The notes under the pieces are model-generated. The model was not told the origin of the DNA and did not search any database. It was given only the letters and a program-made list of their open reading frames with translations. From contig JANNTQ010000081.1 in NCBI GenBank assembly GCA_031394435.1, positions 186-64,185 of the forward strand: DNA of 64,000 nt, in the 5' to 3' direction. The DNA comes from Betaproteobacteria bacterium (lineage in GTDB: Bacteria; Pseudomonadota; Gammaproteobacteria; Burkholderiales; SG8-39). Made by a program: the position numbers and the translations under genes. Of the stretch, positions 3,466 to 18,843 are shown piece after piece. Position 1 is the first letter of the stretch; the number at the start of each line of letters is the position of its first letter.

Positions 3466-4331
3466 CGGATGCCAAGCAGTATCAGCACGATCCCGACCAG
3501 ATGGTAGAGGTGCAGCTCTTCGTCCAGCAGCGCGACCGCCATCAGCGCGCCGAACAGCGGGATCAGGTGCAGGTAGACGCCAGCACGCGCCGGCCCCACC
3601 TCTGCGACCCCGCGGTTCCACATCGCGTAGCACACCACGGACGGAAACAGCCCCAGGTACAGGGTGCCGAACACCGAGCCCCAGGTCGGCTCGAAGCGCC
3701 CCCCGGCAGCAATGTCGATGAGATACGCGGGAAGCCCGGTCAGCATTCCGGCAAGCATCACCGCAAGCATGAAGGCGAACGGATCGAGGCCCTTGGGCGC
3801 CCAGCGCAGGCAGGCTGTATAGAGCGCCCACAGCGCCACGTTGGCGAGCAGCCACAGGTCGCCGGGATTCGCCCCCAGCGAGCCCAGGGCGGCGAAGTCC
3901 AGGCGCAGCACGATCGCCAGCACGCCGCAGGACGACAGCACCAGCCCCGCCACGGCGCGCGGGCGGATCTTGTCGCGGAACAGCAGGAACGCGAACAAGG
4001 GGATCAGCGCCGGCGTCACCGACTGGAACAGCACCGCGTTGGTGGCGGTGGTCTGCTTGATGCCAACGTAGCCGATGGCGTTGTAGAGCACCGTGCTGCA
4101 GGTGCCAAAGAACAGGATTGGCCGCCACGCGGCGCACGCTTTTGGCCACTCGCGCACCAGGATCGGCATGGCGAGCGGCGCCAGAAACGCGATCGCCGCT
4201 GCCCAGCGCCAGAACGCAAGGCTCACCGGCGAGACGTGCGGGTGCACGGCGCGCGCCACGATCCAGTGCGCCGCCCAGAAGAAGGACGTGAGCGCGAGCA
4301 GGAAGTGGGGCGAAACGGGGAGGGCTGGCAT
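3453..4331 (-). CDS. DMT (EamA/RhaT) family transporter
   Basis: 292-aa, ~10-TM hydrophobic ORF with two EamA-like halves. Confidence 0.8.
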   Translation of the reverse strand: MPALPVSPHFLLALTSFFWAAHWIVARAVHPHVSPVSLAFWRWAAAIAFLAPLAMPILVREWPKACAAWRPILFFGTCSTVLYNAIGYVGIKQTTATNAVLFQSVTPALIPLFAFLLFRDKIRPRAVAGLVLSSCGVLAIVLRLDFAALGSLGANPGDLWLLANVALWALYTACLRWAPKGLDPFAFMLAVMLAGMLTGLPAYLIDIAAGGRFEPTWGSVFGTLYLGLFPSVVCYAMWNRGVAEVGPARAGVYLHLIPLFGALMAVALLDEELHLYHLVGIVLILLGIRWVG

Positions 4332-4352
4332 GCTCCTCGCTACAATACCCGC

Positions 4353-6359
4353 ATGGTTTCCGTCGTCCAGCTACACCCGCAAAACAGCGCTGCCGCGCTA
4401 GAGCCGCTGACCGAAGGGCTGTCGGGCGGGGAGCGCGCACTGCTCGCGCGCGCGCTCGAGTTCGCCGAGCCGCTGTACGCCGGACAGGTGCTGTCCACCG
4501 GAGAACCGGTGTGGCCGCACGCGCTGGGGCTCGGCGCGAATCTTGCCGCGATCGGCATGGACCCGGCGGCGCGCGCCGCCGGGGTGCTGTTCGCGGCGCC
4601 GAAGTACCTGGGTGGCACGCAGAAGCTGGCGGAAGGGTTCGGCGCGGAGGTCGCTGGCCTCGCCGACGGCGTGGAGAAGCTCTACCAGCTGCGCGTGCTG
4701 ACGCGCGCCAACGCCGCGCAGCAGAGCGAAGTGCTGCGCAAGATGGTGCTCGGCATGGTGCAGGACGTGCGCGTCGTGCTGATTCGTCTGGCGAGCCGCA
4801 CGCAGACGCTGCGCTGGTTTGCCAAGCACGCGAGCGAGGATCGGCGCGCCTACGCGCAGGAGACGCTGGACATCTACGCGCCGCTGGCCAACCGGCTCGG
4901 CGTATGGCAGCTCAAGTGGGAACTGGAGGACCTGTCGTTCCGCTTCCTCGAGCCCGAGGTGTACCGCAGGATCGCCAAGATGCTGGACGAGCGCCGCGTC
5001 GAGCGCGAGCAGTACATCGCGCAGGCCATGGCGGCGCTCGGCGGCGAGCTGCAGGCCGCCGGCGTGCGGGGCGAGGTCAGCGGCCGGCCCAAGCACATCA
5101 CCTCGATCTGGAACAAGATGCAGGTGAAGGGCCTGGACTACGAGCAGGTGCACGACGTGCGCGCACTGCGCGTGATCGTGCCCAGCGTGCAGGACTGTTA
5201 CGCCGCGCTCGGCGTGGCGCACAATCTGTGGCAGCCGATCGCGCGCGAGTTCGACGACTACATTTCGCGCCCGAAGGGCAACCTGTACCAATCGCTGCAT
5301 ACCGCGGTGCTCGGGCCGGGCGGCAAGACGCTGGAAGTGCAGATCCGTACCGAGGAGATGCATCGCCACGCCGAGCTCGGCGTGGCGGCGCACTGGCGCT
5401 ACAAGGAGGCCGGCAAGGCGACTCGCGCAGACAGCGCCTTCGACGACAAGATCGCCTGGCTGCGGCAGTTGCTCGCCTGGCGCGACGAGATCACAGACCG
5501 CGCTTCGTGGACCGAGCAGACGCAACGCGCGGCGCTCGACGACACCATCTACGCCGTCACGCCGCAGGGCAAGGTGGTGGACCTGCCCTTTGGCTCCACG
5601 CCGATCGACTTCGCCTACGCGCTGCACACCGACCTCGGCCACCGCTGCCGCGGCGCCAAGGTGGATGGGCACATCGTGCCGCTCGATACTGCGCTGCAGA
5701 GCGGGCAGCGCGTGGAGATCACCGTCGCCAAGACTGGCGGCCCATCACGCGACTGGTTGAGCGCCGAGCGCGGGTTCCTGAAAACCAGCCGCGCGCGCGC
5801 CAAGGCGCGCCACTGGTTCAAGCTGCGGGAAGGCGGCCGGGAAGCGGAAGCAGCGCCCAAACCAAGACTGGTGCCGGCGCCGGCCGCGCCCGCGCCGCGC
5901 AAGCGCAAGGCCGCGGTGGCGGGCAGCGGCATCCTGGTGGTGGGTATTGACCGCCTGTTGACGCAGCTCGCCAAGTGCTGCAAGCCGGTGCCGCCCGACC
6001 CGATCCGCGGCTTCGTCACACGCGGGCGCGGCGTATCCATCCACCGGGAGGACTGCGCGAGTTTCAAGCGCCTGGCGCAGACCGATCCCGCGCGCCTCAT
6101 CGACGCGCAGTGGGGCGGCGCTGCCGGCGCCTACAGCGTGGACATGGTGGTGACCGCGAGCGACCGGCCGGGCCTGCTGCGCGACATCGGCGATGCGCTC
6201 GCGCGCGAGCGCATCAATGTCACGGCGGTGCGCACACAGAGCCGGGACGAGATCGCCCTCATGCGTTTTTCATATGAGGTGGGGGACGTGGCGCAGTTGA
6301 GGCGCGCGTTCGCGGTGGTGCGCGATGTGGCTGGCGTGATGCGCGTGGCGCGCGGCTGA
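4353..6359 (+). CDS. relA: GTP pyrophosphokinase RelA ((p)ppGpp synthetase I)
   Basis: Synthetase motifs HDVRALRVIV and YISRPKGNLYQSLHTAV. TGS segment IYAVTPQGKVVDLPFGSTPIDFAY and a C-terminal ACT-like domain. The N-terminal HD region is degenerate. Start taken at the first ATG after the divergent transporter gene. Confidence 0.9.
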   Translation: MVSVVQLHPQNSAAALEPLTEGLSGGERALLARALEFAEPLYAGQVLSTGEPVWPHALGLGANLAAIGMDPAARAAGVLFAAPKYLGGTQKLAEGFGAEVAGLADGVEKLYQLRVLTRANAAQQSEVLRKMVLGMVQDVRVVLIRLASRTQTLRWFAKHASEDRRAYAQETLDIYAPLANRLGVWQLKWELEDLSFRFLEPEVYRRIAKMLDERRVEREQYIAQAMAALGGELQAAGVRGEVSGRPKHITSIWNKMQVKGLDYEQVHDVRALRVIVPSVQDCYAALGVAHNLWQPIAREFDDYISRPKGNLYQSLHTAVLGPGGKTLEVQIRTEEMHRHAELGVAAHWRYKEAGKATRADSAFDDKIAWLRQLLAWRDEITDRASWTEQTQRAALDDTIYAVTPQGKVVDLPFGSTPIDFAYALHTDLGHRCRGAKVDGHIVPLDTALQSGQRVEITVAKTGGPSRDWLSAERGFLKTSRARAKARHWFKLREGGREAEAAPKPRLVPAPAAPAPRKRKAAVAGSGILVVGIDRLLTQLAKCCKPVPPDPIRGFVTRGRGVSIHREDCASFKRLAQTDPARLIDAQWGGAAGAYSVDMVVTASDRPGLLRDIGDALARERINVTAVRTQSRDEIALMRFSYEVGDVAQLRRAFAVVRDVAGVMRVARG

Positions 6360-6365
6360 TGGAAT

Positions 6366-6863
6366 ATGATCGCCCGCTCGGCTGTTAAGCTGGGCACGCA
6401 TGCAGAGGAGCTCTTGAATACTCCCGCCGTCCAGACGCGCTACGGGACGGGCGCGCAAGCACTCCACTGGCTCATGTTCCTGTTGATTGCCGCCATGTAC
6501 TTCATCGGCCTGTCGATGGTCGCGATGGAAGTCAGCCCCGAGCGCCTGCGCTACTTTTCATTGCACAAGTACGTGGCGAAATTCCCTACAATCAGCTTTG
6601 GCGCGCCGAGCGTGCAACTGGTCGGAGAGGCGCCAACGCGTGTGCCAGGCACGCTGACCATGCTGGGAGTCACCAGGCCGCTGACGCTGGAGGTAAGCCG
6701 GTTCCGCTGCATGGATCACCCGTTCCAGAAGGCCAGGGAACTCTGCGGTGGCGATGCTGCGGTGACCATCAAGCGCTCGGAGTGGGGCATGAAGCACTTG
6801 ATTCCGGCCGTGGGTGACGACATCCGACTGGACATCCAGCTCGAGGCGGTGCGGGAAAAATAA
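6366..6863 (+). pseudogene. Chimeric ORF: cytochrome b561 N-terminus (~1 TM) fused in frame to the C-terminal half of a YceI-like protein
   Basis: Residues ~20-67 (TRYGTGAQALHWLMFLLIAAMYFIG..YFSLHK) match the start of CybB-type cytochrome b561. From ..AKFPTISF.. to ..GTLTMLGVTRPLTLEV..IKRSEWGM..IRLDIQLEAV it matches the YceI C-terminal half. The junction lies near 6570-6578. Confidence 0.55.
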
Positions 6864-6872
6864 GGAGAACGG

Positions 6873-7038
6873 TTACAGCCGGGGCAGCAGGACCAGCAGC
6901 CACACGGCGGCGAGCGCGGCGAGAGCCATCATCACCGCGGCGCTGCCGAGGTCCTTGGCGCGCTTGGCAAGCTGGTGATCCTCGAGCGAAATGCGTTCCA
7001 CGGTCGCCTCGCTCGCGGAGTTGAGCAGCTCGACCACC
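6873..7038 (-). pseudogene. 3' remnant (~54 codons) of a second diacylglycerol kinase gene
   Basis: 6871-7038 aligns without gaps to 10563-10730 (3' end of the intact dgkA) at roughly 80% identity. It encodes VVELLNSASEATVERISLEDHQLAKRAKDLGSAAVMMALAALAAVWLLVLLPRL. The N-terminal two thirds are absent. Confidence 0.8.
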
Positions 7039-7266
7039 GACGAGCACCTGAGGAGCGCCGACTTTTTCAACGTCGCGGAATTCCCGCGCATGACCTTCAA
7101 GGCCTCCGATGTGAAGTTCAACGGCGATAACCCTACCGAAGTCACGGGCGAACTCACGCTGCTCGGCGTCACCAAGCCGCTTACGCTGAAGATCGAGCGC
7201 TGGGTGTGCAAGGACAACCCCTTCAACAAGAAGCCGATCGTCGGGTTCGAGGGCTACAAGGACTAG
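7039..7266 (+). pseudogene. YceI-like gene fragment, truncated at both 5' and 3' ends
   Basis: DEHLRSADFFNVAEFPRMTFKASDVKF..GELTLLGVTKPLTLKI matches the central YceI region. It starts directly at the dgkA-remnant junction and stops early (..GFEGYKD*) compared with the copy at 6366-6863. Confidence 0.65.
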
Positions 7267-7321
7267 TTTCACCGAAGCGTCACCAATCCTTCACGGGCGG
7301 GTCATCCTCGGGGACCAGGAT
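7266..7321 (+). promoter_or_regulatory. Pho-box-like array plus -10-like hexamer upstream of the Zn-PLC-superfamily gene
   Basis: GTTTCAC-N4-GCGTCAC-N4-CCTTCAC-N4-GGGTCAT (heptamers end at 7272, 7283, 7294, 7305; exact 11-bp period). Then 10 bp, then CAGGAT (7316-7321). Confidence 0.55.
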
Positions 7322-7329
7322 GCTCGCCC

Positions 7330-8118
7330 GTGCAGGCCGTCCTTCTCGCCGTTCCCCTGCTGCTGTTCGCCGGCGACGCCCTCGCCTGGGGACTGCAGAC
7401 GCACCTCTACTTCGCGCAGCAAGTCCTGTTCGCGGTCCCGCTGCTGGATCCGGAGATCCGCCGCGCGGCACTGAGGTTACCCCGCCTGGTGCTGGCCGGC
7501 GCCTGCCTGCCCGACATTTCGCTCGTCGGCAGCGTGCTGGGCATTCGCCTGTTCCGCAGCACGCACCAGTGGGCGACGCTGCGCAGGCTCGCCGCCGCCA
7601 ATTGTGACGAGGAGCGTGCTGTGGCGCTGGGCTATGCCAGCCACCTGATGTCCGACGTAATGGCGCACAACTGCTTTGTGCCCGAGCACGAGCGGCGCGT
7701 AGCCGACGTGGCGTACGCGACGCATGCGCTGTGCGAATGGGCGATGGACGACTACCTCAAGCCCTGGGTGTGCGCCGTGCCTGGTGAACTGCTGGCGGCG
7801 GAACGCAGGCCGCTGGCGCAGATCGTCGCGCGGCGCTGGCACTGCAGCGAGCCGCTGGCGCTGCGCGCCATCGACTGGCTTTCCGGCGCCGACCGCCTGC
7901 TGCGCGCTGCGCGCATGCCGCGCATTTGTGGCGCCCTGCTGCGATTCGTCGATCAGCGCCTCGCGCCGAGATTCGACGCCTACGTACGCGACACCTCGAC
8001 ACTGCTGGTCCAGGTGGGCGCGGTTCTGGAGGGCCGCCAGCCCGTGGCGCAGGCCGAGCCGAAACGTCCTTCCGCCTTCTGGCGCACGGGCAAGCTGTTG
8101 CCCCAGCCGCCACTTTGA
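7330..8118 (+). CDS. Secreted zinc-dependent phospholipase C / S1-P1 nuclease superfamily protein
   Basis: 262-aa ORF with a GTG start. The signal peptide ends ..GDALA|WGLQTH, so the mature protein would begin with Trp as in Zn-PLC and P1 nuclease. Metal motif ..GYASHLMSDVMAH... Confidence 0.7.
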   Translation: MQAVLLAVPLLLFAGDALAWGLQTHLYFAQQVLFAVPLLDPEIRRAALRLPRLVLAGACLPDISLVGSVLGIRLFRSTHQWATLRRLAAANCDEERAVALGYASHLMSDVMAHNCFVPEHERRVADVAYATHALCEWAMDDYLKPWVCAVPGELLAAERRPLAQIVARRWHCSEPLALRAIDWLSGADRLLRAARMPRICGALLRFVDQRLAPRFDAYVRDTSTLLVQVGAVLEGRQPVAQAEPKRPSAFWRTGKLLPQPPL

Positions 8119-8819
8119 ACTGCGGTCCTCGCAGCCTGCGCCGCGTCCCGGCGGCCCAGGCGGTGGGTGGCAATGGCGCCGCAGCAGCGGATTTCCAGCG
8201 TCAGCGAAGGCAAGCCTGCGATCATGCACAGGGACTGCCACAGATTCATGTCGCCGAGATAGGCAGCCTCGATGCACCGCCTGCCGGCGCGATCGCGGTA
8301 ATCGAGCGCGAGCGCCCGCACGGGATGGCCGCCCGCCACTGCGGCCTGGAACAGCGCGGGCCGAAACGGCAGCAGCTGCACGCCGTCCGTGGTGGTCCCT
8401 TCTGGAAACATGGCGACGGACTCGCCTCGCGCGAGCCGTAGCGAGATGTCTGCGTTGACTAGCAGCAAGGCGCGGCAGGCGCGGCGCTCGACGAACAGTG
8501 TTTCATTGCGCGCCAGCATGCGACCGAGCAGGGGCCACCGGTGCGCCTCGGCCTTGGCGACGATCGCCGCGGGGAGCAGCGCATGCAGTGCGACGGCATC
8601 GAGCCAAGACACGTGATTGGCGACCACCAAGCTGCCGGGCGCAATTCGCAGCGCGCCGCACTCGAGCCGCACGCCGAGCATGCGTAGCAGGTCGCGCGCC
8701 CAGGCGCGGCGCACGGCCAGGCGCGCTTGCGGTCCTAGCAGCGGATAAAGCCATGCGCTCAGCGCGCAACCGGCCGCCAGGTGCAGGCCCACGCGCGACA
8801 GGCGCAGGGTCCGCCTCAC
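7980..8819 (-). CDS. Lysophospholipid (PlsC-family) acyltransferase; OlsA candidate
   Basis: NHVSWLD (HX4D) and FPEGTT motifs. The start overlaps the PAP2 stop. The C-terminal ~46 codons overlap the convergent gene at 7330-8118. Confidence 0.8.
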   Translation of the reverse strand: MRRTLRLSRVGLHLAAGCALSAWLYPLLGPQARLAVRRAWARDLLRMLGVRLECGALRIAPGSLVVANHVSWLDAVALHALLPAAIVAKAEAHRWPLLGRMLARNETLFVERRACRALLLVNADISLRLARGESVAMFPEGTTTDGVQLLPFRPALFQAAVAGGHPVRALALDYRDRAGRRCIEAAYLGDMNLWQSLCMIAGLPSLTLEIRCCGAIATHRLGRRDAAQAARTAVQSGGWGNSLPVRQKAEGRFGSACATGWRPSRTAPTWTSSVEVSRT

Positions 8820-9349
8820 GCAATGGCGATCGAGGCCGTGGCCACCGCGGCGCCGATCAGCGCCCCGGCCAGCACGTCGCTCGGGTAGTGCAGGCCCAGC
8901 ACCACGCGCGAGGCCGCGGTGAGCAGCGCGAAGGGCAGCAGCAGTGGCGCGAGCGATGGCCAGTAGTCGAGGGCGACCAGGGTAAACCCCACGGCGTGCA
9001 GCGTATGACCCGAGGGAAAACTGAATGCATCCAGCGGCGCGGTGCCGGCTGCCACGCGCGGCAGCGCCTGGTAGGGGCGCGGGCGCAGAGTGCTTCTCTT
9101 CAGCATCTTGTAGGCCGCGGTGCAGACCACGCCGACGAACAGCATGTGCAGCACCGGCAGTGCCGCCTCGCGCGGCTGGCGCAGCAGCAGCGCGAGCATC
9201 AGTGCGTACCAGAAGATGCCGTTGCCGAGCCAGCTGACCAGTTGCGCGACCTGCAGCAGCGGGCGGTAATGCAGCCAGCGGTTGGAACGCTGGCAGACGC
9301 GCTCGTCCCAGCGCTGCAGACGCTCGAGCGCACCTTCAAGCCGCGGCAT
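8816..9349 (-). CDS. PAP2-family phosphatase (phosphatidic acid phosphatase type 2-like)
   Basis: 177-aa membrane ORF with the tripartite PAP2 motif Kx6RP (KRSTLRPRP), PSGH (FPSGHT) and SRx5Hx3D (SRVVLGLHYPSD). Confidence 0.85.
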   Translation of the reverse strand: MPRLEGALERLQRWDERVCQRSNRWLHYRPLLQVAQLVSWLGNGIFWYALMLALLLRQPREAALPVLHMLFVGVVCTAAYKMLKRSTLRPRPYQALPRVAAGTAPLDAFSFPSGHTLHAVGFTLVALDYWPSLAPLLLPFALLTAASRVVLGLHYPSDVLAGALIGAAVATASIAIA

Positions 9350-10505
9350 GCGCCGCCTCCCGGCGCACGGAAGAGGGCTGCGCTGCGCCGAGCAGCACCG
9401 CTTCGAAATCGGCGGTGATGCACTCCCAGCTGACCGGTTCGGCAGCAGCGCGCGCGGCGCGGCCGAGTTCGCGCGCTAGCGCGGGCTCGCGCGCCAGCCG
9501 CTCGGCCTGGGCGATGAAGCCGGCGTGGTCGCCAGGTTCCGCGAGCAGCCCGGAGCGCCCGTGCTCGAGGTGCTGGCGCGCTGCAGCGTAGCGGTAGGCG
9601 ACGATGGCAAGTCCGCTCGCCGCCGCTTCCAGCGTGACATTGCCGAAGGTCTCGGTGACGCTGGGAAACAGAAACACGTCCGCCGAGGCGTAGTGCGCCG
9701 AGAGTTCGCCGTTCACCAGCCGGCCGGCGATCACGCTGCCGGTATCGGCATTGCGCAACTCTGCTAGCAGCGGTCCGTCGCCGACCAGCACCAGCCGCGT
9801 GGCGGGATTGAGGTGGCGCATCGCCTCGTAGGCCTCGATCACCAGCGGGAAGTTCTTCTCCGGCGCGAATCGGCTGACGCACAAGGCCACCAGGTCCCGT
9901 TCGCCGGCGCCCCATTGCGCGCGCAGCTCCGCGCGGCGCTTTGCCGGGGAGAAGGTCTGCGCATTGACCCCGCGTCCCACGACGCGCAGGCGCTCGAAGC
10001 CCAGGCGCGCCAGTGCTTCGGCCATCTCGCCGGTGGGCACCATGGTGCAGTCGCAGCGGTTGTGAAAGCGGCGCAGCACCGCGGCCACCGGGCGTGCCAG
10101 CCAGGCGAGGCCGTAGTGCCGGCTGTAGGCATGAAAATTGGTGTGGAAATCGCTCGCCACCGGCAAGCCGAGCTTGCGCGCGGCGGCGATCGCCGACCAG
10201 CCGAGGGGGCCTTCGGTGGCGACGTGGACCACGTCGGGACGCTGATCGCCCCATGCGCGCAGCAGCGCGCGCCGCGACGGCAACCCCATCTTCAACTGCG
10301 TGTAGCGCGGTATGGGAATACCGGGGCGCAGCAGTTCTTGATAGTTCGCGCCGGTGCGGGCCGCCGTGTCACTGCGGTTCTGGCGCGGTCGCACCAGCTG
10401 GATCGAATGGCCGAGTGCGCGCAGACCGTCGGCCATCAGCGCGACGGTGCGCGCCACGCCGTTGACCTCCGGCGGGTAGGTCTCGGTCACCATGGCGATG
10501 TGCAT
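9336..10505 (-). CDS. GT4-family glycosyltransferase (SqdX / DAG-glycosyltransferase-like)
   Basis: 389 aa from MHIAMVTETYPPEVNGVARTV.., a typical GT4 N-terminus. C-terminal ..FPSVTETFGNVTLEAAASG.. (EX7E region). An alternative start exists at 10532. Confidence 0.85.
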   Translation of the reverse strand: MHIAMVTETYPPEVNGVARTVALMADGLRALGHSIQLVRPRQNRSDTAARTGANYQELLRPGIPIPRYTQLKMGLPSRRALLRAWGDQRPDVVHVATEGPLGWSAIAAARKLGLPVASDFHTNFHAYSRHYGLAWLARPVAAVLRRFHNRCDCTMVPTGEMAEALARLGFERLRVVGRGVNAQTFSPAKRRAELRAQWGAGERDLVALCVSRFAPEKNFPLVIEAYEAMRHLNPATRLVLVGDGPLLAELRNADTGSVIAGRLVNGELSAHYASADVFLFPSVTETFGNVTLEAAASGLAIVAYRYAAARQHLEHGRSGLLAEPGDHAGFIAQAERLAREPALARELGRAARAAAEPVSWECITADFEAVLLGAAQPSSVRREAAHAAA

Positions 10506-10514
10506 GCGGCGCGC

Positions 10515-10570
10515 AGTCTGCGTGCCGCGCATGAATTTTCGATGAAGCTTTTGTGAGCTTTCGGTTACAG
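10515..10570 (-). promoter_or_regulatory. Pho-box-like array plus -10-like hexamer upstream of the GT4 gene
   Basis: Minus strand: CTGTAAC-N4-AGCTCAC-N4-GCTTCAT-N4-AATTCAT, then 10 bp, then CAGACT, then 9 nt before the ATG at 10505. The first heptamer contains the dgkA stop codon. Confidence 0.55.
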
Positions 10571-10978
10571 CCGGGGGAGCAGGACCAGCAGCCAGACCAC
10601 CGCGACGCTCACAAGAGACATCATCACTGCGGCGCTGCCGAGGTCCTTGGCGCGCTTGGCGAGGCGATGGTCCTCGAGTGAGACGCGGTCCACTGTCGCC
10701 TCGACTGCGGAATTGAGCAGCTCGACCACCAGCACCAGCAGCACGCTGCCCACCAGCAGGGCGCGCTCGAGGCCGTCGTTGCCCAGCCACAGCCCGAGCG
10801 GCACCATAGCAGCAGCAAGCAACAGTTCCTGGCGAAACGCATCCTCGTGGCGCGCCGCGGCGGCAAAGCCCTCGAACGAATAGCGCGCCGCGTTGATCAG
10901 GCGCTGCAGGCCGGTCTTGCCCTTGAAGGGACTCTCGCCATTCATCGCGCGGCGGAATGTAGCACGCACTGCTGTCAT
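10565..10978 (-). CDS. dgkA: Diacylglycerol kinase
   Basis: 137-aa 3-TM ORF, ..RYSFEGFAAAARHEDAFRQE..ELLNSAVEATVDRVSLEDHRLAKRAKDLGSAAV... Confidence 0.9.
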   Translation of the reverse strand: MTAVRATFRRAMNGESPFKGKTGLQRLINAARYSFEGFAAAARHEDAFRQELLLAAAMVPLGLWLGNDGLERALLVGSVLLVLVVELLNSAVEATVDRVSLEDHRLAKRAKDLGSAAVMMSLVSVAVVWLLVLLPRL

Positions 10979-11027
10979 CGAGATTTCACCGTCGCGTCAC
11001 TCCGGCGTCATGCGATCCGCCTAGATT
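10972..11027 (+). promoter_or_regulatory. Pho-box-like array plus -10 hexamer upstream of olsB
   Basis: CTGTCAT-N4-ATTTCAC-N4-GCGTCAC-N4-GCGTCAT (heptamers end at 10978, 10989, 11000, 11011). Then 10 bp, then TAGATT (11022-11027). The first heptamer contains the dgkA start codon on the other strand. Confidence 0.6.
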
Positions 11028-11060
11028 GCGCCCCGTTCGAGCAACCGAAAGGGCGCGAGC

Positions 11061-11831
11061 ATGGAGCACATCGACGAGCTGCTGGTGCAGCACCCGGGCA
11101 CCGAGGCGCGCGCGCGGCGCCGTCTTTCCGTGGGTTTCGCGCGTTCGCCCCAGTTGCTGCGCGCCGCGCAGGCGCTGCGCTGGCGGGTGTTCGTCGACGA
11201 GCTTGGCGCACGGCTCGAGTCGCGCGAGCCGGGCATCGATCAGGACATTTTCGACGCCCATTGCGAGCACCTCGTGGCGCGGGATGACGACACAGGCGAG
11301 GTGGTCGGCACCTACCGGCTGCTGCCGCCGGCAGCAGCCCGGCGTGTAGGCAGCTACTACGCGGAGACCGAGTTCGACCTGACGCGGCTATGGCTATTGC
11401 GCGCACGCATGGTGGAAGTGGGGCGCTCGTGCATCCACCCGGACTACCGCAACGGCGCAGCGATCGGCCTGCTGTGGGCGGGCCTTACCCGCTACATGCT
11501 GGCGCAGGGGCACGAATACCTAGCGGGCTGCGCTTCGATGGGCATGGCGGACGGCGGCCATGCCGCGGCGTCTGTCTACGCACGCCTCGGCGAGCGCTGC
11601 CATGCGCCGATCGAATACCGCGTGTTTCCGCGTTGCCCGCTGCCGCTGGATCGCCTGGACGCCGGCGCGGGCGGCGCGCTGCCCGCGCTGATCAAGGCCT
11701 ACCTGCGCGCCGGCGCCTGGATCTGCGGCGAGCCGGCCTGGGACCCGGACTTCAACACCGCCGACTTCTTCGTCCTGCTGCCGCTGGCCAACGTCGCGCC
11801 GCGCTACACGCGGCACTACCTCAAAAAATAG
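11061..11831 (+). CDS. olsB: Ornithine-acyl-ACP N-acyltransferase (GNAT, OlsB family)
   Basis: 256 aa. AQALRWRVFVDELGA.., ..VVGTYRLL.., ..EVGRSCIHPDYRNG.., ..LPALIKAYLRAGAW..FNTADFFVLL follow the OlsB/Acetyltransf_5 pattern. Confidence 0.8.
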   Translation: MEHIDELLVQHPGTEARARRRLSVGFARSPQLLRAAQALRWRVFVDELGARLESREPGIDQDIFDAHCEHLVARDDDTGEVVGTYRLLPPAAARRVGSYYAETEFDLTRLWLLRARMVEVGRSCIHPDYRNGAAIGLLWAGLTRYMLAQGHEYLAGCASMGMADGGHAAASVYARLGERCHAPIEYRVFPRCPLPLDRLDAGAGGALPALIKAYLRAGAWICGEPAWDPDFNTADFFVLLPLANVAPRYTRHYLKK

Positions 11832-11847
11832 GGTCCGTCCCCTTTTT

Positions 11848-13929
11848 CTACGACGGAGTTGCGAGGGTGAAGAGCAGTTCTTCCTGCGCCGAGCGGCGCC
11901 GGCCGCGGCGCGGCTTGACGCGCGCGTAGCTGCCGTCGGCGTCCATCGCCCAGGCCTGGCAGTTGTCGTCGAGGTAGGGCTGCAGGCCTTCGCGCACCAC
12001 GCGGCGCTTCAACGCCGGGTCGAGCACCGGAAAGCACAACTCGATGCGGCGGAAGAAGTTGCGCCCCATCCAGTCCGCGCTCGCCAGGTAGACGTCCTCG
12101 GCGCCGGCATTGTGGAAGTAGAACACCCGCGAGTGCTCGAGGAAGCGCCCGATCACCGAGCGCACGCGGATATTCTCCGACAGGCCCTCGATGCCCGGCC
12201 GCAGCGCGCACACGCCGCGCACGATGAGGTCGACCTTCACGCCAGCCTGCGATGCCAGGTACAGCTCGTCGATCGCCTGCGAGTCGAGCAGCGAGTTCAT
12301 CTTGGCGATGATGCGCGCCGGCTGGCCGTCGCGCGCCAGGCGAGCCTCGTTCTGGATCGCGGCGAGCATCCGCTTGTGCAGCGTGAAGGGCGACTGCCAG
12401 AGGTGCTTCATCTTGCCGGCACGCCCCAGGCCGGTGAGCTGCTTGAACACCTCGGCCACGTCGGCGCACAGGTCTTCGTTGGAAGTGATCAGGCCGAAGT
12501 CCGTATACAGGCGGGCGGTTCGCGGGTGGTAGTTGCCCGTGGCCAGATGCACGTAGCGCCGCAGCACCTTGCCGGACTCGGCGTCTTCACGGCGCACGAT
12601 CAACGCCATCTTGGCGTGCGTCTTGTGGCCGACCACGCCGTAGACCACGTGCGCGCCCACCTCCTCCAGACGCGCCGCCCAGTTGAGGTTGGCTTCCTCG
12701 TCAAAGCGCGCCATCAGCTCCACCACCACGGTCACTTCCTTGCCGCGGCGCGCCGCATCCACCAGGATCTCCATCAGCTCCGAATCGGTGCCGGTGCGGT
12801 ACACCGTCTGCTTGATCGCGATTACGTTCGGGTCCGCCGCGGAGGTGCGGATGAAGTCGATCACCGGCTTGAACGACTGGTAAGGGTGATGCAGCAGCAC
12901 GTCCTGCTTCTTCAGCAGATCGAACAGGTCACTTTGCTCCACCAGCGGCGCCGGCAGTCCGGGCTGGAACGGCGGGAACTTGAGGTTGGGCCCGTCCACG
13001 CGGTCGGGGACCTCGCGCAGGCGAACCAGGTTGACCGGGCCCTCGACCCGGTACAGATCCTCGTCGCGCAGGCCGAACTGCTGCAACAGGAAGTCGACCA
13101 TCGGCTGCGAGCAGTTGTCGGCCACCTCCAGCCGCACCGCGTCGCCGAAATGGCGGTGCAGCAGTTCGCCTTTTAACGCGGTGTGCAGGTTCTTGATTTC
13201 CTCCTCGTCCACGAACAGGTCGGAATTGCGCGTGACGCGAAACTGGTAGCAGCCAAGCACTTTCATGCCGGCGAACAGCTCGTCGACGTGAGCGTGCAGG
13301 ATCGAGGACAGAAAGACGAAGCAGTGGTGCGCGCCGCCGATACCGTGCGGCAGGCGGATGACGCGCGGCAGGGCGCGCGGCGCCTGCACGATCGCCGCGC
13401 CCGAGTTGCGTCCGAAAGCGTCGCGGCCGACCAGTTCCACCGCGAGGTTCAGACTCTTGTTGAGCACCTTGGGAAACGGGTGCGCCGGGTCCAGGCCGAT
13501 CGGCGTCAGCACCGGCAGCAGCTCGCGGAAGAAGTAGTCGCGGATCCACTGTTTCTGCGCCGCGGTCCACTGCTCGCGCCGCGGGAACAGGATGCCCGCG
13601 TCGGCCAGCGCCGGCAGCACAACATCATTGAGCAGCCGGTACTGCTCGGCCACGATGGCGCGCGCTTCACGGCTCACGGCCTCGAACACCTCCAGCGGCC
13701 CCTTGCCGTCGGGGCCGGGTTCGGGCAGGTTGAGCTTGATCTGCTCCTTCAGGCCGGCGACGCGGATCTCGAAGAATTCGTCGAGATTGCCCGAAACGAT
13801 GGTGAGGAAGCGCAGGCGCTCGAGCAGCGGCACAGAGTCATCCGCGGCCTGTGCGAGCACGCGCCGGTTGAACTCGAGCAGGCCGAGTTCGCGGTTCAGG
13901 TAGTGCGCTGCGGGCAGGTCTCTTTTCAT
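11848..13929 (-). CDS. ppk1: Polyphosphate kinase 1
   Basis: 693-aa ORF, YLNRELGLLEFNRRVL.. N-terminus and full-length PPK1 architecture. Confidence 0.95.
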   Translation of the reverse strand: MKRDLPAAHYLNRELGLLEFNRRVLAQAADDSVPLLERLRFLTIVSGNLDEFFEIRVAGLKEQIKLNLPEPGPDGKGPLEVFEAVSREARAIVAEQYRLLNDVVLPALADAGILFPRREQWTAAQKQWIRDYFFRELLPVLTPIGLDPAHPFPKVLNKSLNLAVELVGRDAFGRNSGAAIVQAPRALPRVIRLPHGIGGAHHCFVFLSSILHAHVDELFAGMKVLGCYQFRVTRNSDLFVDEEEIKNLHTALKGELLHRHFGDAVRLEVADNCSQPMVDFLLQQFGLRDEDLYRVEGPVNLVRLREVPDRVDGPNLKFPPFQPGLPAPLVEQSDLFDLLKKQDVLLHHPYQSFKPVIDFIRTSAADPNVIAIKQTVYRTGTDSELMEILVDAARRGKEVTVVVELMARFDEEANLNWAARLEEVGAHVVYGVVGHKTHAKMALIVRREDAESGKVLRRYVHLATGNYHPRTARLYTDFGLITSNEDLCADVAEVFKQLTGLGRAGKMKHLWQSPFTLHKRMLAAIQNEARLARDGQPARIIAKMNSLLDSQAIDELYLASQAGVKVDLIVRGVCALRPGIEGLSENIRVRSVIGRFLEHSRVFYFHNAGAEDVYLASADWMGRNFFRRIELCFPVLDPALKRRVVREGLQPYLDDNCQAWAMDADGSYARVKPRRGRRRSAQEELLFTLATPS

Positions 13930-13967
13930 CGCGGGAGGCCGCAGGGACGCGGCTCGCGGAGGGGCGC

Positions 13968-14012
13968 ATCCTACGCCATTGGAATGACAATATGGTTACA
14001 GACAGGTTACAT
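13968..14012 (-). promoter_or_regulatory. Pho-box-like array plus -10 hexamer upstream of ppk1
   Basis: Minus strand: ATGTAAC-N4-CTGTAAC-N4-TTGTCAT (14012-13984), then 10 bp, then TAGGAT (13973-13968). Confidence 0.6.
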
Positions 14013-14020
14013 GCAGCGCT

Positions 14021-14054
14021 GCGCAACCGGACTGTCACATTCGCAAGCTAGGCT
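14021..14054 (+). promoter_or_regulatory. Weaker Pho-box-like element upstream of phoU
   Basis: GCGCAAC-N4-CTGTCAC (14032-14038), then 10 bp, then TAGGCT (14049-14054). Only one heptamer is a good match. Confidence 0.3.
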
Positions 14055-14063
14055 GTGGGCCGC

Positions 14064-14777
14064 ATGTCCACGCCGCAGCCGCCCCATACCTCGAAGGACT
14101 ACGACCAGCAACTCGCACAGGCGCATGCGCTGGTGCTGCAAATGGGCGCGCGCGTCGAGCGCCAGGTTGTGGATGCCATCGAATGCCTGGCCTCGGGGTC
14201 GGTCGCGCTCATCAACTGGGTGCTGCGCCATGAGGTCGTGATCAACGCGATGGAACTTTCCATCGACGAACTCGCGTGCCAGATCATCGCGCGCCGCCAG
14301 CCCGCGGCCAACGACCTGCGCCTGCTGACCGCCGTGCTGAAGGCGACGACCGATCTGGAGCGCGTCGGGGACGAAGCGAAGAAGATCGCGCTGCAGGCGC
14401 GCAAGGCGCGGGCCGATGGCGGCTCGCGACTGCCGCGCCAGGCCGAAGTGCGGCGCATGGCGCAGCTCGCGCTCGGCATGCTGCGGCGTGCGCTCAGCGC
14501 ATTCGAGCGGCTCGATCTCGAAGGCACCGCCGAAGTCGTACGCCGCGACGCGGAAGTGAACGACGCGTTTCTCGTCATCCTGCGCCAGCTGGTCACCAGC
14601 ATGGTCGAGGACCCGCGCAGCATCTCCGTCAACCTCGAATTGCTGTTCGTCGCCAAGGCGCTCGAGCGCATCGGCGACCACGCCAAGAACATCGCCCAGC
14701 ACGCCATCTATGCGGTGAAGGGCGCCGATATGCGCCACGCCTCGGTGGCCGAGATCGAGCAGGAACTGCGCGGCTAG
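14064..14777 (+). CDS. phoU: Phosphate signalling complex protein PhoU (stand-alone, not next to pst genes)
   Basis: 237 aa from the ATG at 14064 (the track ORF starts at GTG 14055). Two PhoU repeats with ..DLERVGDEAKKIA.. and ..ALERIGDHAKNIA... Confidence 0.9.
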   Translation: MSTPQPPHTSKDYDQQLAQAHALVLQMGARVERQVVDAIECLASGSVALINWVLRHEVVINAMELSIDELACQIIARRQPAANDLRLLTAVLKATTDLERVGDEAKKIALQARKARADGGSRLPRQAEVRRMAQLALGMLRRALSAFERLDLEGTAEVVRRDAEVNDAFLVILRQLVTSMVEDPRSISVNLELLFVAKALERIGDHAKNIAQHAIYAVKGADMRHASVAEIEQELRG

Positions 14778-14794
14778 GCTATTCTGGCCGCAAC

Positions 14795-16312
14795 ATGGCG
14801 CGCCCGGACACTCTTGCCGCCGTCGACCTCGGCTCGAACAGCTTTCACCTGCAGATCGGCCGCGTGGTCGACGGCCAGATCTACCCCCTCGACTGGGTGC
14901 GCGAAGTGGTGCGCATCGGCGCCGGCCTCACCGCCGACAAGCGCATCGATCGCGCCACGCAGGCGCGCGCGCTCGAGGCGCTGCGCAAGTTCGGCGAGCG
15001 CCTGCGCGGCTTCCCGCGCCAGGCGGTGCGCGCGGTGGGCACCAACACCCTGCGCGTGGCGAAGAACGCGCCGCAGTTCCTGCGCGAAGCGCGCCAGGAG
15101 CTCGGCTTCCCGATCGAGGTGATCGCCGGCCGCGAGGAAGCGCGCCTGATCTACCTCGGCGTGGCTCACTCGATGCCGCCGGCGCAGCACCACCGGCTGG
15201 TGGTGGACATCGGCGGCGGCTCGACCGAGTTCATCGTCGGCGAGGGCCTGGAGCCGCAGCTCACCGAGTCGCTCTACATGGGCTGCGTGAGCTACAGCCT
15301 GAAATACTTTCCCGAGGGCAAAGTCGAGAAATCCGCGCTCAAGGCGGCGCAACTCGCCGCACGCCAGGAAGTCGCGGGCATCGCGCGCGCCTACCGCGCG
15401 GCAGGCTGGCAGGAGGCCGTGGCTTCCTCGGGCACCGCACGCTCGATCGAGAACATCCTGCGCGAGAACGGCTTTGCCGAGCAAGGCATCACGCGCGACG
15501 GATTGGAGCGGCTGAGGAGCCTGCTGGTCAAGCAGGAGCGCGCCGACCCCGAGCGCATCGCCGGGCTGCGGCCGAACCGCGCGCCGGTATTTCCGGGCGG
15601 CCTTGCCATCATGAGCGCGGTGTTCGACGAACTGGAACTGGAGGCGATGGCAGTTTCCGACGGCGCCCTGCGCCATGGCGTCCTCTACGACCTGCTCGGC
15701 CGCGTGCAGCACCGCGACATGCGCGCGGCAACGGTGACGCAGTTCGTACGCCGCTACCACGTGGAAGCGGCCCAGGCCGAACGTGTGCGGCGCCTCGCGC
15801 TGACCGTCTACGACGCCCTGGCGCCGGGCCGCGAGCGCGAGGACGACGCCGACCGCCTGCTGCTCGACTGGGCCGCGAGCCTCGCCGAGATCGGCCTGTC
15901 GATCGAGCATGCGCAGTACCACAAGCATTCCGCCTACGTGCTGCAGAACGCCGACATGCCCGGGTTCTCGCGCATGGAACAGCAGCGCTTGGCCAGGATC
16001 GTGCTGGCGCATCGCGGCAAGCTCGGCAAGATGCACGACGCGGGGCTGGAATCCGCCGACTGGCCGCTGGTGTTCGCGCTGCGGCTCGCCTCGCTCATCC
16101 TGCGCAGCCGTACCGAGGTCAAGCTGCCGCTGTTGCGCGTGGCGGGCGACACGGGAGGGTTCGAAATCGAGTTGGCGCAGTCCTGGCTCGACGACAATCC
16201 GCTGTCGGCGGCGGCCCTGGAGGACGAGGCGTGGCACTGGAAGTCGGTCGGCATGAAGCTGGCGGTGAGCGGGCTCTCGGACAAGAAGGTATCGGTGCTG
16301 AGCCGAGCGTAG
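14795..16312 (+). CDS. ppx: Exopolyphosphatase (Ppx/GppA family)
   Basis: 505 aa from MARPDTLAAVDLGSNSFHLQIGRV..; Ppx-GppA ASKHA fold plus a C-terminal HD-like domain. Confidence 0.92.
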   Translation: MARPDTLAAVDLGSNSFHLQIGRVVDGQIYPLDWVREVVRIGAGLTADKRIDRATQARALEALRKFGERLRGFPRQAVRAVGTNTLRVAKNAPQFLREARQELGFPIEVIAGREEARLIYLGVAHSMPPAQHHRLVVDIGGGSTEFIVGEGLEPQLTESLYMGCVSYSLKYFPEGKVEKSALKAAQLAARQEVAGIARAYRAAGWQEAVASSGTARSIENILRENGFAEQGITRDGLERLRSLLVKQERADPERIAGLRPNRAPVFPGGLAIMSAVFDELELEAMAVSDGALRHGVLYDLLGRVQHRDMRAATVTQFVRRYHVEAAQAERVRRLALTVYDALAPGREREDDADRLLLDWAASLAEIGLSIEHAQYHKHSAYVLQNADMPGFSRMEQQRLARIVLAHRGKLGKMHDAGLESADWPLVFALRLASLILRSRTEVKLPLLRVAGDTGGFEIELAQSWLDDNPLSAAALEDEAWHWKSVGMKLAVSGLSDKKVSVLSRA

Positions 16313-16329
16313 GGTGGGCCTGGGCCAGC

Positions 16330-16782
16330 CTACAGCAGGTCCGGCGTTACCACGGCGCGCACCACGACCTGGGCTTCGTCTTGCCTCACGCGATTGCTCA
16401 GCCACCATGCGCCGCCCTTCTTGATGCTCCAGCCGTTCGCGGCGCCGGATACCAACTGCGCCGCAGTCCGGCCGAGGTCCGGCTGATGCCCCACCACCAC
16501 CACGGCGTTCTTGCGATCCGGCCAGCCCGCAGCCTGCAGGATCTGCGCCACCGAGGCGCCAGGGGCAAGCCGCTCCGCAGTCTTGAAGGCGACGCCCAGC
16601 GCCTGGGCGGTCTCCTGCGCGCGGCGCGCGGGGCTGGCGAGCACGACGAATTTCGCGGGCAGGCGCTGCAGCAGCCACTGTGCCACGTGTGCGGCGTGCT
16701 TGTGGCCCCGCGGCGTAAGGCGGCGCTCGAGGTCGGGCGCGCCGTCCTCGGCTTCGGCGTGGCGCCAGAGAATCAGGTCCAT
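16330..16782 (-). CDS. sixA: Phosphohistidine phosphatase SixA-like (histidine phosphatase superfamily)
   Basis: 150 aa, MDLILWRHAEAE.. (RHxxA motif) and ..VVVGHQPDLG... Confidence 0.8.
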   Translation of the reverse strand: MDLILWRHAEAEDGAPDLERRLTPRGHKHAAHVAQWLLQRLPAKFVVLASPARRAQETAQALGVAFKTAERLAPGASVAQILQAAGWPDRKNAVVVVGHQPDLGRTAAQLVSGAANGWSIKKGGAWWLSNRVRQDEAQVVVRAVVTPDLL

Positions 16783-16859
16783 GTCGCTATGAACGTCATC
16801 GGCGGGATGTTGTTCCGTGGATGTGGCGCTTCAGTTAAGATTCCGCTCCTCGTTCCACC

Positions 16860-16936
16860 AGGCGCGTAGCTCAGCTGGTTAGAGCACTACCTTGACATGG
16901 TAGGGGTCGTTGGTTCGAGTCCAATCGCGCCTACCA
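16860..16936 (+). tRNA. tRNA-Val (anticodon GAC)
   Basis: Cloverleaf folded by hand: acceptor AGGCGCG/CGCGCCT, D arm GCTC/GAGC, anticodon arm CTACC-TTGACAT-GGTAG, T arm GTTGG-TTCGAGT-CCAAT, encoded CCA. Confidence 0.9.
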
Positions 16937-16941
16937 ACATC

Positions 16942-18843
16942 TTGCCAAACATTAAGCTCCCCGACGGCTCGGTGAAGAGCTTCCCGGGTCCGGTTACGGT
17001 CGCCGAGGTGGCGCAGTCCATCGGCGCCGGCCTGGCGCGCGCGGCGCTCGCCGGCAAGGTCAACGGCAAGCTCGTCGATATCAGTCACCGCATCGAGGGC
17101 GACGCCGACCTCGCCATCGTGACCGAGCGCGATGCCGAGGGACTCGAGATCCTGCGCCATTCCACGGCGCACCTGCTGGCGCATGCGGTGAAAGAGCTGT
17201 TTCCCGACGCCCAGGTGACCATCGGGCCGGTGATCGACAACGGCTTTTACTACGACTTCGCTTACCAGCGCCCGTTCACGCCCGACGACCTGGCCGCGAT
17301 CGAAAAGCGCATGGCCGAGATCGCGAAGAAGGATTACCCGGTGGCGCGCCGCGAGCTGCCACGCGACGAAGCAGTAAAGTTCTTCCGCGAGCAGGGCGAG
17401 GTGTACAAGGCCGAGATCATCGCTTCGATCGCTGCGGGCGAGAAGATTTCTCTCTACGGCCAGGGCAACTTCGTCGACCTGTGCCGCGGGCCGCACGTGC
17501 CATCCACGGGCAAGCTAAAGGTGTTCAAGCTGATGCGCGTGGCCGGCGCCTACTGGCGCGGCGACTCGAAGAACGAAATGCTCCAGCGCATTTACGGCAC
17601 GGCCTGGGCGAAGAAGGAGGACCAGGATGCGTACCTGAAGATGCTGGAGGAGGCCGAGAAAAGGGATCACCGGCGGCTCGGCACGCAACTCGACTTGTAT
17701 CACATGCAGGAGGAGGCGCCGGGACTGGTGTTCTGGCACCCGAAGGGCTGGACGCTGTGGCAGTGCGTCGAGCAGTACATGCGGCGCGTGTACCGCGAGC
17801 ACGGCTACCACGAGGTGCGCGGCCCGGAGATCCTCGACCAGAGGCTGTGGCAGCGTACCGGGCACTGGGAGAATTTCCGCGACAGCATGTTCACCACGGC
17901 CTCCGAGAACCGCGAATACTGCTTGAAGCCGATGAACTGCCCGGGGCACATCCTGATCTTCAACAAGGGCGTGCGCAGCTACCGCGAGCTGCCGCTGCGC
18001 TACGGCGAGTTTGGATCCTGCCACCGCAATGAGCCTTCCGGAGCGCTGCACGGCCTGATGCGCGTGCGCGGCTTCGTGCAGGACGACGGCCACATCTTCT
18101 GCACCGAGGACCAGATCCTCGCCGAGTGCGTCGCCTACACCGTGCTGCTGCAGAAGGTGTACGCCGACTTCGGGTTCAGCGACATTGTCTACAAGGTGGC
18201 GACACGGCCCGCGGCGCGCATCGGCGCGGACGAGGTCTGGGACAAGGCCGAGCAGGCGTTAATGGAGTCGCTGCGGCGCTCGGGCGTCGAGTTCCGGATT
18301 TCGCCGGGCGAAGGCGCTTTCTACGGCCCCAAGATCGAGTATTCGCTCAAGGACGCCCTCGGCCGCCTGTGGCAGTGCGGCACCATGCAGGTGGACTTCA
18401 GCATGCCGGGGCGCCTGGGCGCCGAATACGTCGCCGAGGACAACAGCCGCAGGACCCCGGTGATGCTGCACCGCGCGATCATCGGCTCGATGGAGCGCTT
18501 CATCGGCATCCTGATCGAGCATTACGGCGGTGCGTTTCCGCTCTGGCTGGCGCCGCATCAGGTCGTGGTGATGAACATCTCCGAGCACCAGGCGGCGTAT
18601 GCCCAAGCGGCGGCGGATGCCTTGCGCAAAGCTGGATTCCGCGCCTTCGAAGATTTGCGAAACGAGAAAATTTCCTATAAGATTCGGGAACATAGCTTGC
18701 AAAAGCTTCCCTACCAGTTGGTGGTGGGAGACAAGGAAAAGCAGGCTGGAACGGTGGCCGTGCGCACGCGCGGCGGTGAGGATCTCGGCGGCATGGCGCT
18801 GGATGCCTTCATCGCACGCCTCCGCAACGAGGCGAGCGCGTAA
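16942..18843 (+). CDS. thrS: Threonine--tRNA ligase
   Basis: The TTG at 16942 gives [12 protein letters not shown].., matching the canonical ThrRS N-terminus (TGS domain). The track ORF start at 16897 lies inside the tRNA. Confidence 0.93.

Follow-up and report, generated by a model that had tools for sequence, protein, structure and literature searches.

A compact cluster of five predicted PhoB-type promoters at lipid and polyphosphate genes of an uncultured betaproteobacterium

Introduction

The Pho box was described as two 7-nt direct repeats (CTGTCAT in Escherichia coli) with 4 nt between them, and later as a pair of 11-nt units that each contain a TGTCA tract (PMC4415409, PMC4447250). 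Here we analyze a 64,000-nt stretch of a Betaproteobacteria bacterium genome (GenBank assembly GCA_031394435.1, contig JANNTQ010000081.1, positions 186 to 64,185), referred to below as the window, in which arrays of such heptamers precede five genes: a zinc-dependent phospholipase-C-like (PLC) gene, a GT4 glycosyltransferase gene, an olsB-like gene, ppk1, and phoU. On the basis of sequence and conservation, these arrays are very probably PhoB-type activator-dependent sigma-70 promoters of the Pho regulon, that is, of the phosphate-starvation response.

PhoB control of the functions encoded here has already been published, and the locus is an unexceptional case of a control system that is well known. 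PlcP-dependent lipid remodelling was described in marine bacteria (PMC4796936), Pho boxes were predicted at the plcP-agt genes of Pseudomonas aeruginosa (PA3219-PA3218 and PA0842; PMC8528852), and the plcP-agt-dagK operon of Burkholderia cenocepacia is induced by phosphate (Pi) depletion (bioRxiv 10.1101/2023.05.30.542800). The paper that predicted Pho boxes in front of olsB in Burkholderia sensu lato (PMC7814305) also cites PhoB-dependent synthesis of ornithine lipids in Sinorhizobium meliloti and P. aeruginosa. In addition, ppk and phoU are listed in the phosphate-starvation response in a review (PMC4415409).

The window resembles the PlcP-Agt operons under PhoBR in that predicted Pho boxes stand in front of a cluster of genes for a phospholipase-C-family enzyme, a probable lipid glycosyltransferase, and a diacylglycerol kinase, as well as in the presumed purpose, namely the replacement of phospholipids by glycolipids when phosphate is scarce. 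PlcP is a metallophosphoesterase, whereas the phospholipase of the window is of the PF00882 type, carries a signal peptide, and has a separate promoter on the other strand. The window operon further adds a PAP2 phosphatase and an OlsA-like acyltransferase, and its dgkA lies upstream of the GT4 Pho promoter instead of inside the induced unit. As in Burkholderia sensu lato, Pho boxes precede an OlsB-like gene in Betaproteobacteria; however, the window and many Rhodocyclales-like genomes have a four-unit array (two boxes) at a fixed 10-bp offset. Polyphosphate kinase and PhoU would belong to the starvation response in the window as they do in the known Pho regulon (PMC4415409), but phoU is here detached from pstSCAB, forms a unit with ppx, and is divergent from ppk1.

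Results

Five arrays with one geometry

The initial annotation of the window, which was made from sequence alone, described four heptamer arrays and a weaker version at phoU, each followed by a -10-like hexamer. Both sequence reading and scripted motif location recovered all of these heptamers and hexamers where they had been placed, including those at phoU, as follows.

7266..7305, plus strand: PLC array, heptamers starting at 7266, 7277, 7288, and 7299 (GTTTCAC cgaa GCGTCAC caat CCTTCAC gggc GGGTCAT)
7316..7321, plus strand: PLC -10-like hexamer CAGGAT, 10 bp past the last heptamer, with the GTG start codon 8 nt further on
10570 down to 10531, minus strand: GT4 array, four units (CTGTAAC cgaa AGCTCAC aaaa GCTTCAT cgaa AATTCAT)
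10520-10515, minus strand: GT4 -10-like hexamer CAGACT, 9 nt before the ATG
10972..11011, plus strand: olsB array, heptamers starting at 10972, 10983, 10994, and 11005 (CTGTCAT cgag ATTTCAC cgtc GCGTCAC tccg GCGTCAT)
11022-11027, plus strand: olsB -10-like hexamer TAGATT, with a leader of ~27 nt that contains a Shine-Dalgarno sequence
14012 down to 13984, minus strand: ppk1 array, three units (ATGTAAC ctgt CTGTAAC cata TTGTCAT)
13973-13968, minus strand: ppk1 -10-like hexamer TAGGAT
14021..14038, plus strand: phoU two-unit Pho box, heptamers starting at 14021 and 14032 (GCGCAAC cgga CTGTCAC)
14049-14054, plus strand: phoU -10-like hexamer TAGGCT, 9 nt before ATG 14064

In all five promoters, the units follow each other at exactly 11 bp and the last heptamer is separated from the hexamer by exactly 10 bp, so that the geometry claimed in the initial annotation holds without exception. 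The heptamers share the core T(C/A)A(C/T), the hexamers (CAGGAT, CAGACT, TAGATT, TAGGAT, and TAGGCT) share A and T as their second and sixth bases (A2 and T6), and every array is oriented with the transcription of its downstream gene. The first GT4 unit includes the dgkA stop codon TAA, and the ppk1 and phoU boxes stand back-to-back with 8 bp between them. No canonical -35/-10 promoter was found in 6800-16950, as would be expected of activator-dependent promoters.

The same arrangement is seen in E. coli K-12, where the phoB promoter (one box) reads TTTTCAT aaat CTGTCAT aaatctgacg CATAAT and the pstS promoter (two tandem boxes) reads CTGTCAT aaaa CTGTCAT attc CTTACAT ataa CTGTCAC ctgtttgtcc TATTTT. 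Both are like the window in unit length, orientation, 10-bp offset, and absence of a -35 element, and the four units of pstS correspond to those at PLC, GT4, and olsB. Unlike E. coli with its CTGTCAT, the window has the unit consensus (G/C)(C/T)(G/T)TCA(C/T), plus a frequent xxGCAAC variant; its spacers are GC-rich, its -10 hexamers are weaker, and three of its start codons lie only 8-9 nt past the -10.

Comparison with chance

The pattern TMAY-N7-TMAY-N7-TMAY has seven matches on both strands of the window, all of them inside the four larger arrays; the expected count is 0.00, and none occurred in 100 dinucleotide shuffles. These numbers bear out the view in the initial annotation that such a recurrence was unlikely to be chance. 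Two-unit matches outside the arrays number only four in the window, none of which has a -10-like hexamer at +10. The other annotated genes of the window have housekeeping functions (relA, thrS-infC-rplT-pheST, surE-pcm-nlpD, proS, proB-obg, pilSR, nrdAB, and maeB), and no array was found at any of them. A similar motif frequency in non-promoter DNA had been named beforehand as evidence that would count against the arrays; the motif is absent there.

To avoid circularity, an 11-nt weight matrix was trained solely on the olsB promoters of distant relatives. The six highest-scoring three-unit hits in the window all fell in the four arrays, at 15.8-24.4 bits, and the maxima of shuffled sequences averaged 12.0 bits, the highest being 17.1 bits. 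The matrix scan that the initial annotation had proposed, run here on the window, thus picked out the arrays, and it left the GT4 score within the range of the shuffles. Two-unit scores in the window cannot be told from chance: over 64 kb they fall inside the range of the shuffles. The window by itself therefore gives no significance to the phoU box, and the case for this box rests on its conservation.

Conservation in relatives

A scan with OlsB, with one genome taken per species, yielded 80 loci totaling 1.33 Mb. Eight of these (L001-L007 and L009), from metagenome-assembled genomes (MAGs) of uncultured Betaproteobacteria/Burkholderiales, retain most or all of the synteny; L007 and L009 are without a PLC match, phoU is absent or fragmentary in L006, L007, and L009, and contig ends truncate L003 and L005. 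In the five closest loci (L001-L005), the identity of OlsB is 81-90%, and Ppk1 is up to 93% identical to that of uncultured Betaproteobacteria/Burkholderiales MAGs.

We aligned 24 orthologous four-unit promoters, anchored on the first heptamer: nine of olsB, nine of GT4 (including that of the more distant L082), and six of PLC. They align gap-free from the first unit through the -10 (4x11+10 bp), the core T(C/A)A(C/T) is kept in all 96 units, and A2/T6 of the hexamer is kept in all 24 promoters, while the spacers and the 10-bp linker vary. At heptamer position 3, 53 of the 96 units have G and 35 have T. The TCAY core of the PLC array is 100% conserved over its six orthologous promoters, in which the hexamer appears as GAGCAT, GACGAT, GAGGAT, or CAGCAT, always with A2 and T6. 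For GT4, A2/T6 is kept in 9/9 promoters, and the array is intact even in L082, where the PLC homologue is only 60% identical. Conservation in orthologous promoters, which the initial annotation had suggested as a check, is therefore clear for these arrays.

The strict triple pattern has 72 matches in the 1.33 Mb of the 80 loci versus 1.3 expected, and for 70 of the 72 an olsB, GT4, PLC, or ppk1 homologue begins on the same strand no more than 150 bp downstream. With a relaxed unit that allows xxGCAAC, the strict core having missed many olsB arrays, at least three units followed by 10 bp and nAnnnT were found in 56 of 77 betaproteobacterial olsB upstream regions, and none in shuffles. In Thauera, Zoogloea, Azospira, Dechloromonas, and Azonexus-type genomes (L010-L080), the olsB array, ~40-140 bp upstream of the gene, often includes an xxGCAA(C/T) unit as its third or fourth, with nAnAAT or nAGACT coming 10 bp later. 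The xxGCAAC variant also occurs in the window, in the phoU box (GCGCAAC). Among cultivable relatives, Azospira oryzae DSM 21223 (L014) carries arrays at both olsB and GT4, and strains of Thauera, Zoogloea, and Pseudothauera carry them at olsB.

The smaller boxes recur as well. The phoU box, which the initial annotation had listed as a weaker version, is kept in four relatives (L001, L002, L004, and L071) at the same 10-bp offset, in the form (xxGCAAC, CATTCAT or CAGTCAC)-N4-(C/T)TGTCA(C/T)-N10-TAG(G/C)(C/A)T. The ppk1 box has two units at the same offset in L006, L007, L011, and L071, with TAAAAT, TAGAAT, TAGGCT, or TACACT as the hexamer. Two further loci bear on the regulator. In L061, pstS is preceded by CTGTAAC acgg GCGTAAC aatggcccat GACAAT, that is, by the same motif and geometry. 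In L082 (GCA_040756795.1, JBFLYF010000002.1, 4042-12662), phoX is followed by a PLC-like gene, the opposite strand carries PAP2, GT4, dgkA, and ppk1, ppx is divergent, and no olsB is present in 4042-12662. This cluster ties the PF00882 protein to phoX, a canonical Pho-regulon phosphatase.

Genes behind the arrays

The gene labels of the initial annotation (Zn_dep_PLPC, GT4, OlsB-like, Ppk1, and PhoU) held at family level in Pfam and NCBIfam searches, and the regulated families fit a Pho regulon. The enzyme activities named here are predicted from these matches.

7330..8118, plus strand: Zn-dependent phospholipase-C-family protein, 262 aa; PF00882 (Zn_dep_PLPC), 52.8 bits against a cutoff of 26.8
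7980..8819, minus strand: OlsA-like acyltransferase, last gene of the GT4 operon; Pfam Acyltransferase
8816..9349, minus strand: PAP2-family lipid phosphatase; Pfam PAP2, 75.8 bits
9336..10505, minus strand: GT4 glycosyltransferase; Pfam Glyco_transf_4 and Glycos_transf_1
10565..10945, minus strand: dgkA, prokaryotic diacylglycerol kinase; Pfam DAGK_prokar, 120.9 bits
11061..11831, plus strand: OlsB-like N-acyltransferase (ornithine or amino-lipid synthesis); Pfam Acetyltransf_5, 123 bits
11848..13929, minus strand: polyphosphate kinase 1 (ppk1); TIGR03705, 952 bits against a cutoff of 466
14064-14777, plus strand: phoU; TIGR02135, 197 bits against a cutoff of 130
14795-16312, plus strand, ATG 14795: ppx; Pfam Ppx-GppA, 241 bits

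The PLC-like protein has a signal peptide ending ALA|W. W20, H25, D62, H79, H105, D109, H113, H132, and E136 are invariant in 22 homologues, and these nine residues are candidate metal ligands, which we take to map onto the ligands of Bacillus cereus PC-PLC. A search of PDB sequences with the protein gave no match, and an AlphaFold2 model from the 22-sequence alignment had a mean predicted local distance difference test score (pLDDT) of 48 and was set aside. There is no PlcP-type gene in the cluster, where the sole PLC-like gene matches PF00882; the rest of the genome may differ.

We placed OlsB, OlsA, and GT4 at family level rather than equivalog level. The OlsB models of NCBIfam scored 163 and 154 bits, below cutoffs of 350 and 320, the OlsA models scored 104 and 95 bits, below a cutoff of 300, and the top matches of GT4 were GlcN-PG synthase (143 bits, cutoff 480) and MGlcDAG synthase (114 bits, cutoff 400), both also below. 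GT4 is a probable lipid glycosyltransferase. An olsB-olsA operon in Rhodocyclaceae relatives favors the OlsB/OlsA assignment; in the closest relatives, olsB is apart from olsA, which sits in the GT4 operon. The phoU and ppx genes probably form an operon.

Start codons and other promoter elements

The starts of PLC (GTG 7330), GT4 (ATG 10505), and phoU (ATG 14064) lie 8-9 nt past the hexamer without a Shine-Dalgarno sequence, and dgkA starts 10 nt past its own -10, likewise without one. This short spacing is conserved in relatives, including L082. These observations suggest, with transcription starts predicted from the position of the hexamers, that the PLC, GT4, phoU, and dgkA mRNAs are leaderless or near-leaderless, which would be unusual for Proteobacteria. 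The PLC start GTG 7330 is fixed by alignment and by a 3-nt insertion in L005. Two other readings of this region were rejected. ATG 7320 does not qualify as the PLC start, since it is out of frame and GTG 7330 is the conserved codon; and the orthologues, which keep A2 and T6 but not AGGA, do not bear out CAGGAT as a Shine-Dalgarno sequence instead of a -10.

Downstream of the -10 at PLC, GT4, olsB, and ppk1 (7322-7329, 10506-10514, 11028-11036, and 13959-13967), but not at phoU, there is a GC-rich stretch, GC(G/T)C(G/C)C, which relatives share (majority fraction 0.72-0.94) and which may be a discriminator-type element.

For dgkA, ATG 10945 and not 10978 is the true start. A 137-aa open reading frame that would begin inside the first olsB heptamer was discarded, its frame being broken upstream in L006 and L009. 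The gene's putative promoter is as follows.

10956..10964, minus strand: extended -10 (TGcTACATT), 10 nt before the dgkA ATG, conserved in 9/9 loci

A gap of 7 bp separates this element from the first olsB heptamer. Because the GT4 array starts at the stop codon of dgkA, GT4-PAP2-olsA has a predicted Pho promoter of its own, located downstream of dgkA. An inverted repeat at 10505-10529, with 8 G-C pairs among its 11, covers the GT4 -10 hexamer and extends to the ATG; a scan scored it as terminator-like on the plus strand, and a read-through transcript from dgkA would form a hairpin at the GT4 start. This repeat may be incidental, GC-rich palindromes being common here.

A candidate sixth box, which is weak, lies upstream of a sixA-like histidine phosphatase gene (16330-16782).

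16807..16840, minus strand: candidate sixth Pho box (TCTTAAC tgaa GCGCCAC atccacggaa CAACAT)

Better copies are found in L004 and L009 (TTTTAAC-N4-GCGTCAC/T-N10-CAACAT/CAGGAT); the box is absent in L001, L002, and L006, where the whole ~38-bp segment is missing.

Directly upstream of the PLC array, 6366-7266 consists of gene debris. The 3' end of dgkA is present there as a truncated copy (6870-7038, minus orientation) that is 85% identical to 10562-10730 and is flanked by YceI-like fragments at 6366-6863 (with, in addition, an N-terminus like that of cytochrome b561) and at 7038-7266. Sequence that matches the latter fragment (7038-7238) adjoins the PLC gene on its upstream side in relatives such as L002 and L006. 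Further downstream in the window, a tRNA-Val (GAC) gene at 16860-16936 overlaps the 5' end of the longest thrS reading frame (16897-18843), and the real thrS start must therefore lie further downstream.

Discussion

Weighing the PhoB reading

PhoB is the best candidate among OmpR-family regulators for the protein that would bind these arrays, given the match to E. coli promoters, pstS in L061, phoX in L082, and the phoU, ppk1, and ppx targets. The claim in the initial annotation of a classical PhoB arrangement, with the Pho box in place of a -35 element, is supported by the repeat format, the 10-bp offset, the lack of -35/-10 promoters, and conservation. Both the identity of the regulator and its action as an activator rather than a repressor are inferred from sequence, and several observations weigh against this interpretation. 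Neither phoB nor phoR is present in the 64-kb window or in the relatives' loci examined, and PhoB binding and induction of the arrays by phosphate limitation are predictions. Heptamer positions 1-3 are degenerate (AATTCAT, AGCTCAC, GGGTCAT), and the G of the TGTCA tract is often T, in about one third of units. The spacers, at 46% A+T versus 33% for the genome, are not clearly A/T-rich as they are in E. coli. In a genome of 67% GC, a TGTCA tract and A/T-rich spacers weaker than those of E. coli would be plausible. The hexamers CAGGAT and CAGACT are without T1. The starts of PLC, GT4, and phoU, 8-9 nt past the hexamer, mean either leaderless or near-leaderless mRNAs or a -10 assignment that is off. 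The score of the GT4 array with the independent matrix, 15.8 bits, is inside the shuffle range (maximum 17.1). At ppk1, L082 has no box, and the box of L001, L002, and L004 is degenerate or displaced by 1 bp.

Direct repeats with an 11-bp period are a general property of the OmpR/PhoB family, whose other members also recognize them, and the arrays might instead bind a relative of PhoB that answers a non-phosphate signal such as envelope or lipid stress. The departure of the local consensus from CTGTCAT at positions 1-3 and the lack of a phoB gene in the window would fit such a regulator, as would ornithine-lipid synthesis in response to other stresses in some bacteria (PMC12971839). We nevertheless consider this explanation improbable, since the conserved TCA(C/T) after G/T corresponds to the TGTCA tract of PhoB (PMC4447250), the same motif stands at phoU in the window and at pstS in L061, both canonical PhoB targets, the functions of ppk1, ppx, and phoX (L082) belong to the Pho regulon, and the offset to the -10 is identical to that of E. 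coli PhoB promoters. As for similarity by chance, or debris of local duplication with no regulatory role, the diverged dgkA 3'-end duplicate 230 bp upstream of the PLC array does indicate that the region was rearranged. This account is effectively refuted by the match counts in the window and in the 80 loci, which exceed expectation by far, by cores conserved across genomes whose proteins are only 58-60% identical, and by the spacers, which differ among the arrays, so that these are not recent copies.

PhoB may also bind and yet repress, or have no effect, at some sites. The GT4 array, whose first unit includes the stop codon of dgkA, could be a roadblock to read-through from that gene, and the olsB array, whose first unit lies ~25-31 bp upstream of the inferred dgkA start and next to the conserved extended -10, could occlude the divergent dgkA promoter; PhoB is, moreover, annotated as a dual regulator in E. 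coli. All arrays, however, have an activating geometry and orientation relative to the conserved A2/T6 hexamer, and the kinase of the B. cenocepacia plcP-agt-dagK operon goes up, not down, upon Pi depletion (bioRxiv 10.1101/2023.05.30.542800), an induction of DagK that led us to downgrade repression of dgkA by PhoB. We regard this variant as very improbable, somewhat more so than control by another regulator of the family.

Proposed mechanism

Under activation by PhoB, which we prefer, phosphate scarcity would cause phosphorylated PhoB or its orthologue to bind head-to-tail, each 11-bp unit taking up a single monomer. This would give two dimers at the four-unit arrays of PLC, GT4, and olsB, one or two dimers at ppk1, and a single dimer at phoU. 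The monomer nearest the promoter, ending 10 bp upstream of a weak -10, would substitute for the missing -35 and recruit RNA polymerase via sigma region 4. The secreted Zn-phospholipase-C-like enzyme would then strip phosphorylated head groups, while the GT4-PAP2-acyltransferase operon and the OlsB-like enzyme would make phosphorus-free glyco- and amino-lipids. Ppk1 and Ppx would turn over polyphosphate, and PhoU would provide feedback in phosphate signaling. The output would be a coordinated phosphorus-sparing program.

Significance

Our understanding of PhoB regulation is unchanged by this locus. Its distinctive features are a PF00882-type phospholipase instead of PlcP, possible leaderless transcripts, and the compact cluster of five promoters. 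The secreted PF00882 PLC-like subfamily has more than 1000 metagenomic homologues, among which we found no studied member. The short starts of PLC, GT4, phoU, and dgkA (8-10 nt) are kept in genomes with PLC homologues only 60% identical. A tentative generalization, which we hold to be possible but rather doubtful, is that in soil betaproteobacteria this subfamily is a Pho-regulated supplier of diacylglycerol to a GT4/PAP2/OlsA lipid-renovation operon, replacing PlcP, and that PhoB promoters of the lineage are typically leaderless or nearly so.

What the analysis provides is a conservation-backed map of part of the predicted phosphate-starvation regulon in an uncultured soil-type betaproteobacterial lineage, in which ornithine-type lipids, a probable glycolipid pathway, a secreted PLC-like enzyme, and polyphosphate turnover are linked to what is very likely a single regulator. 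This map aids the annotation of related MAGs and puts forward a PF00882 subfamily, unstudied to our knowledge, as a candidate enzyme for scavenging phosphorus or renovating lipids.

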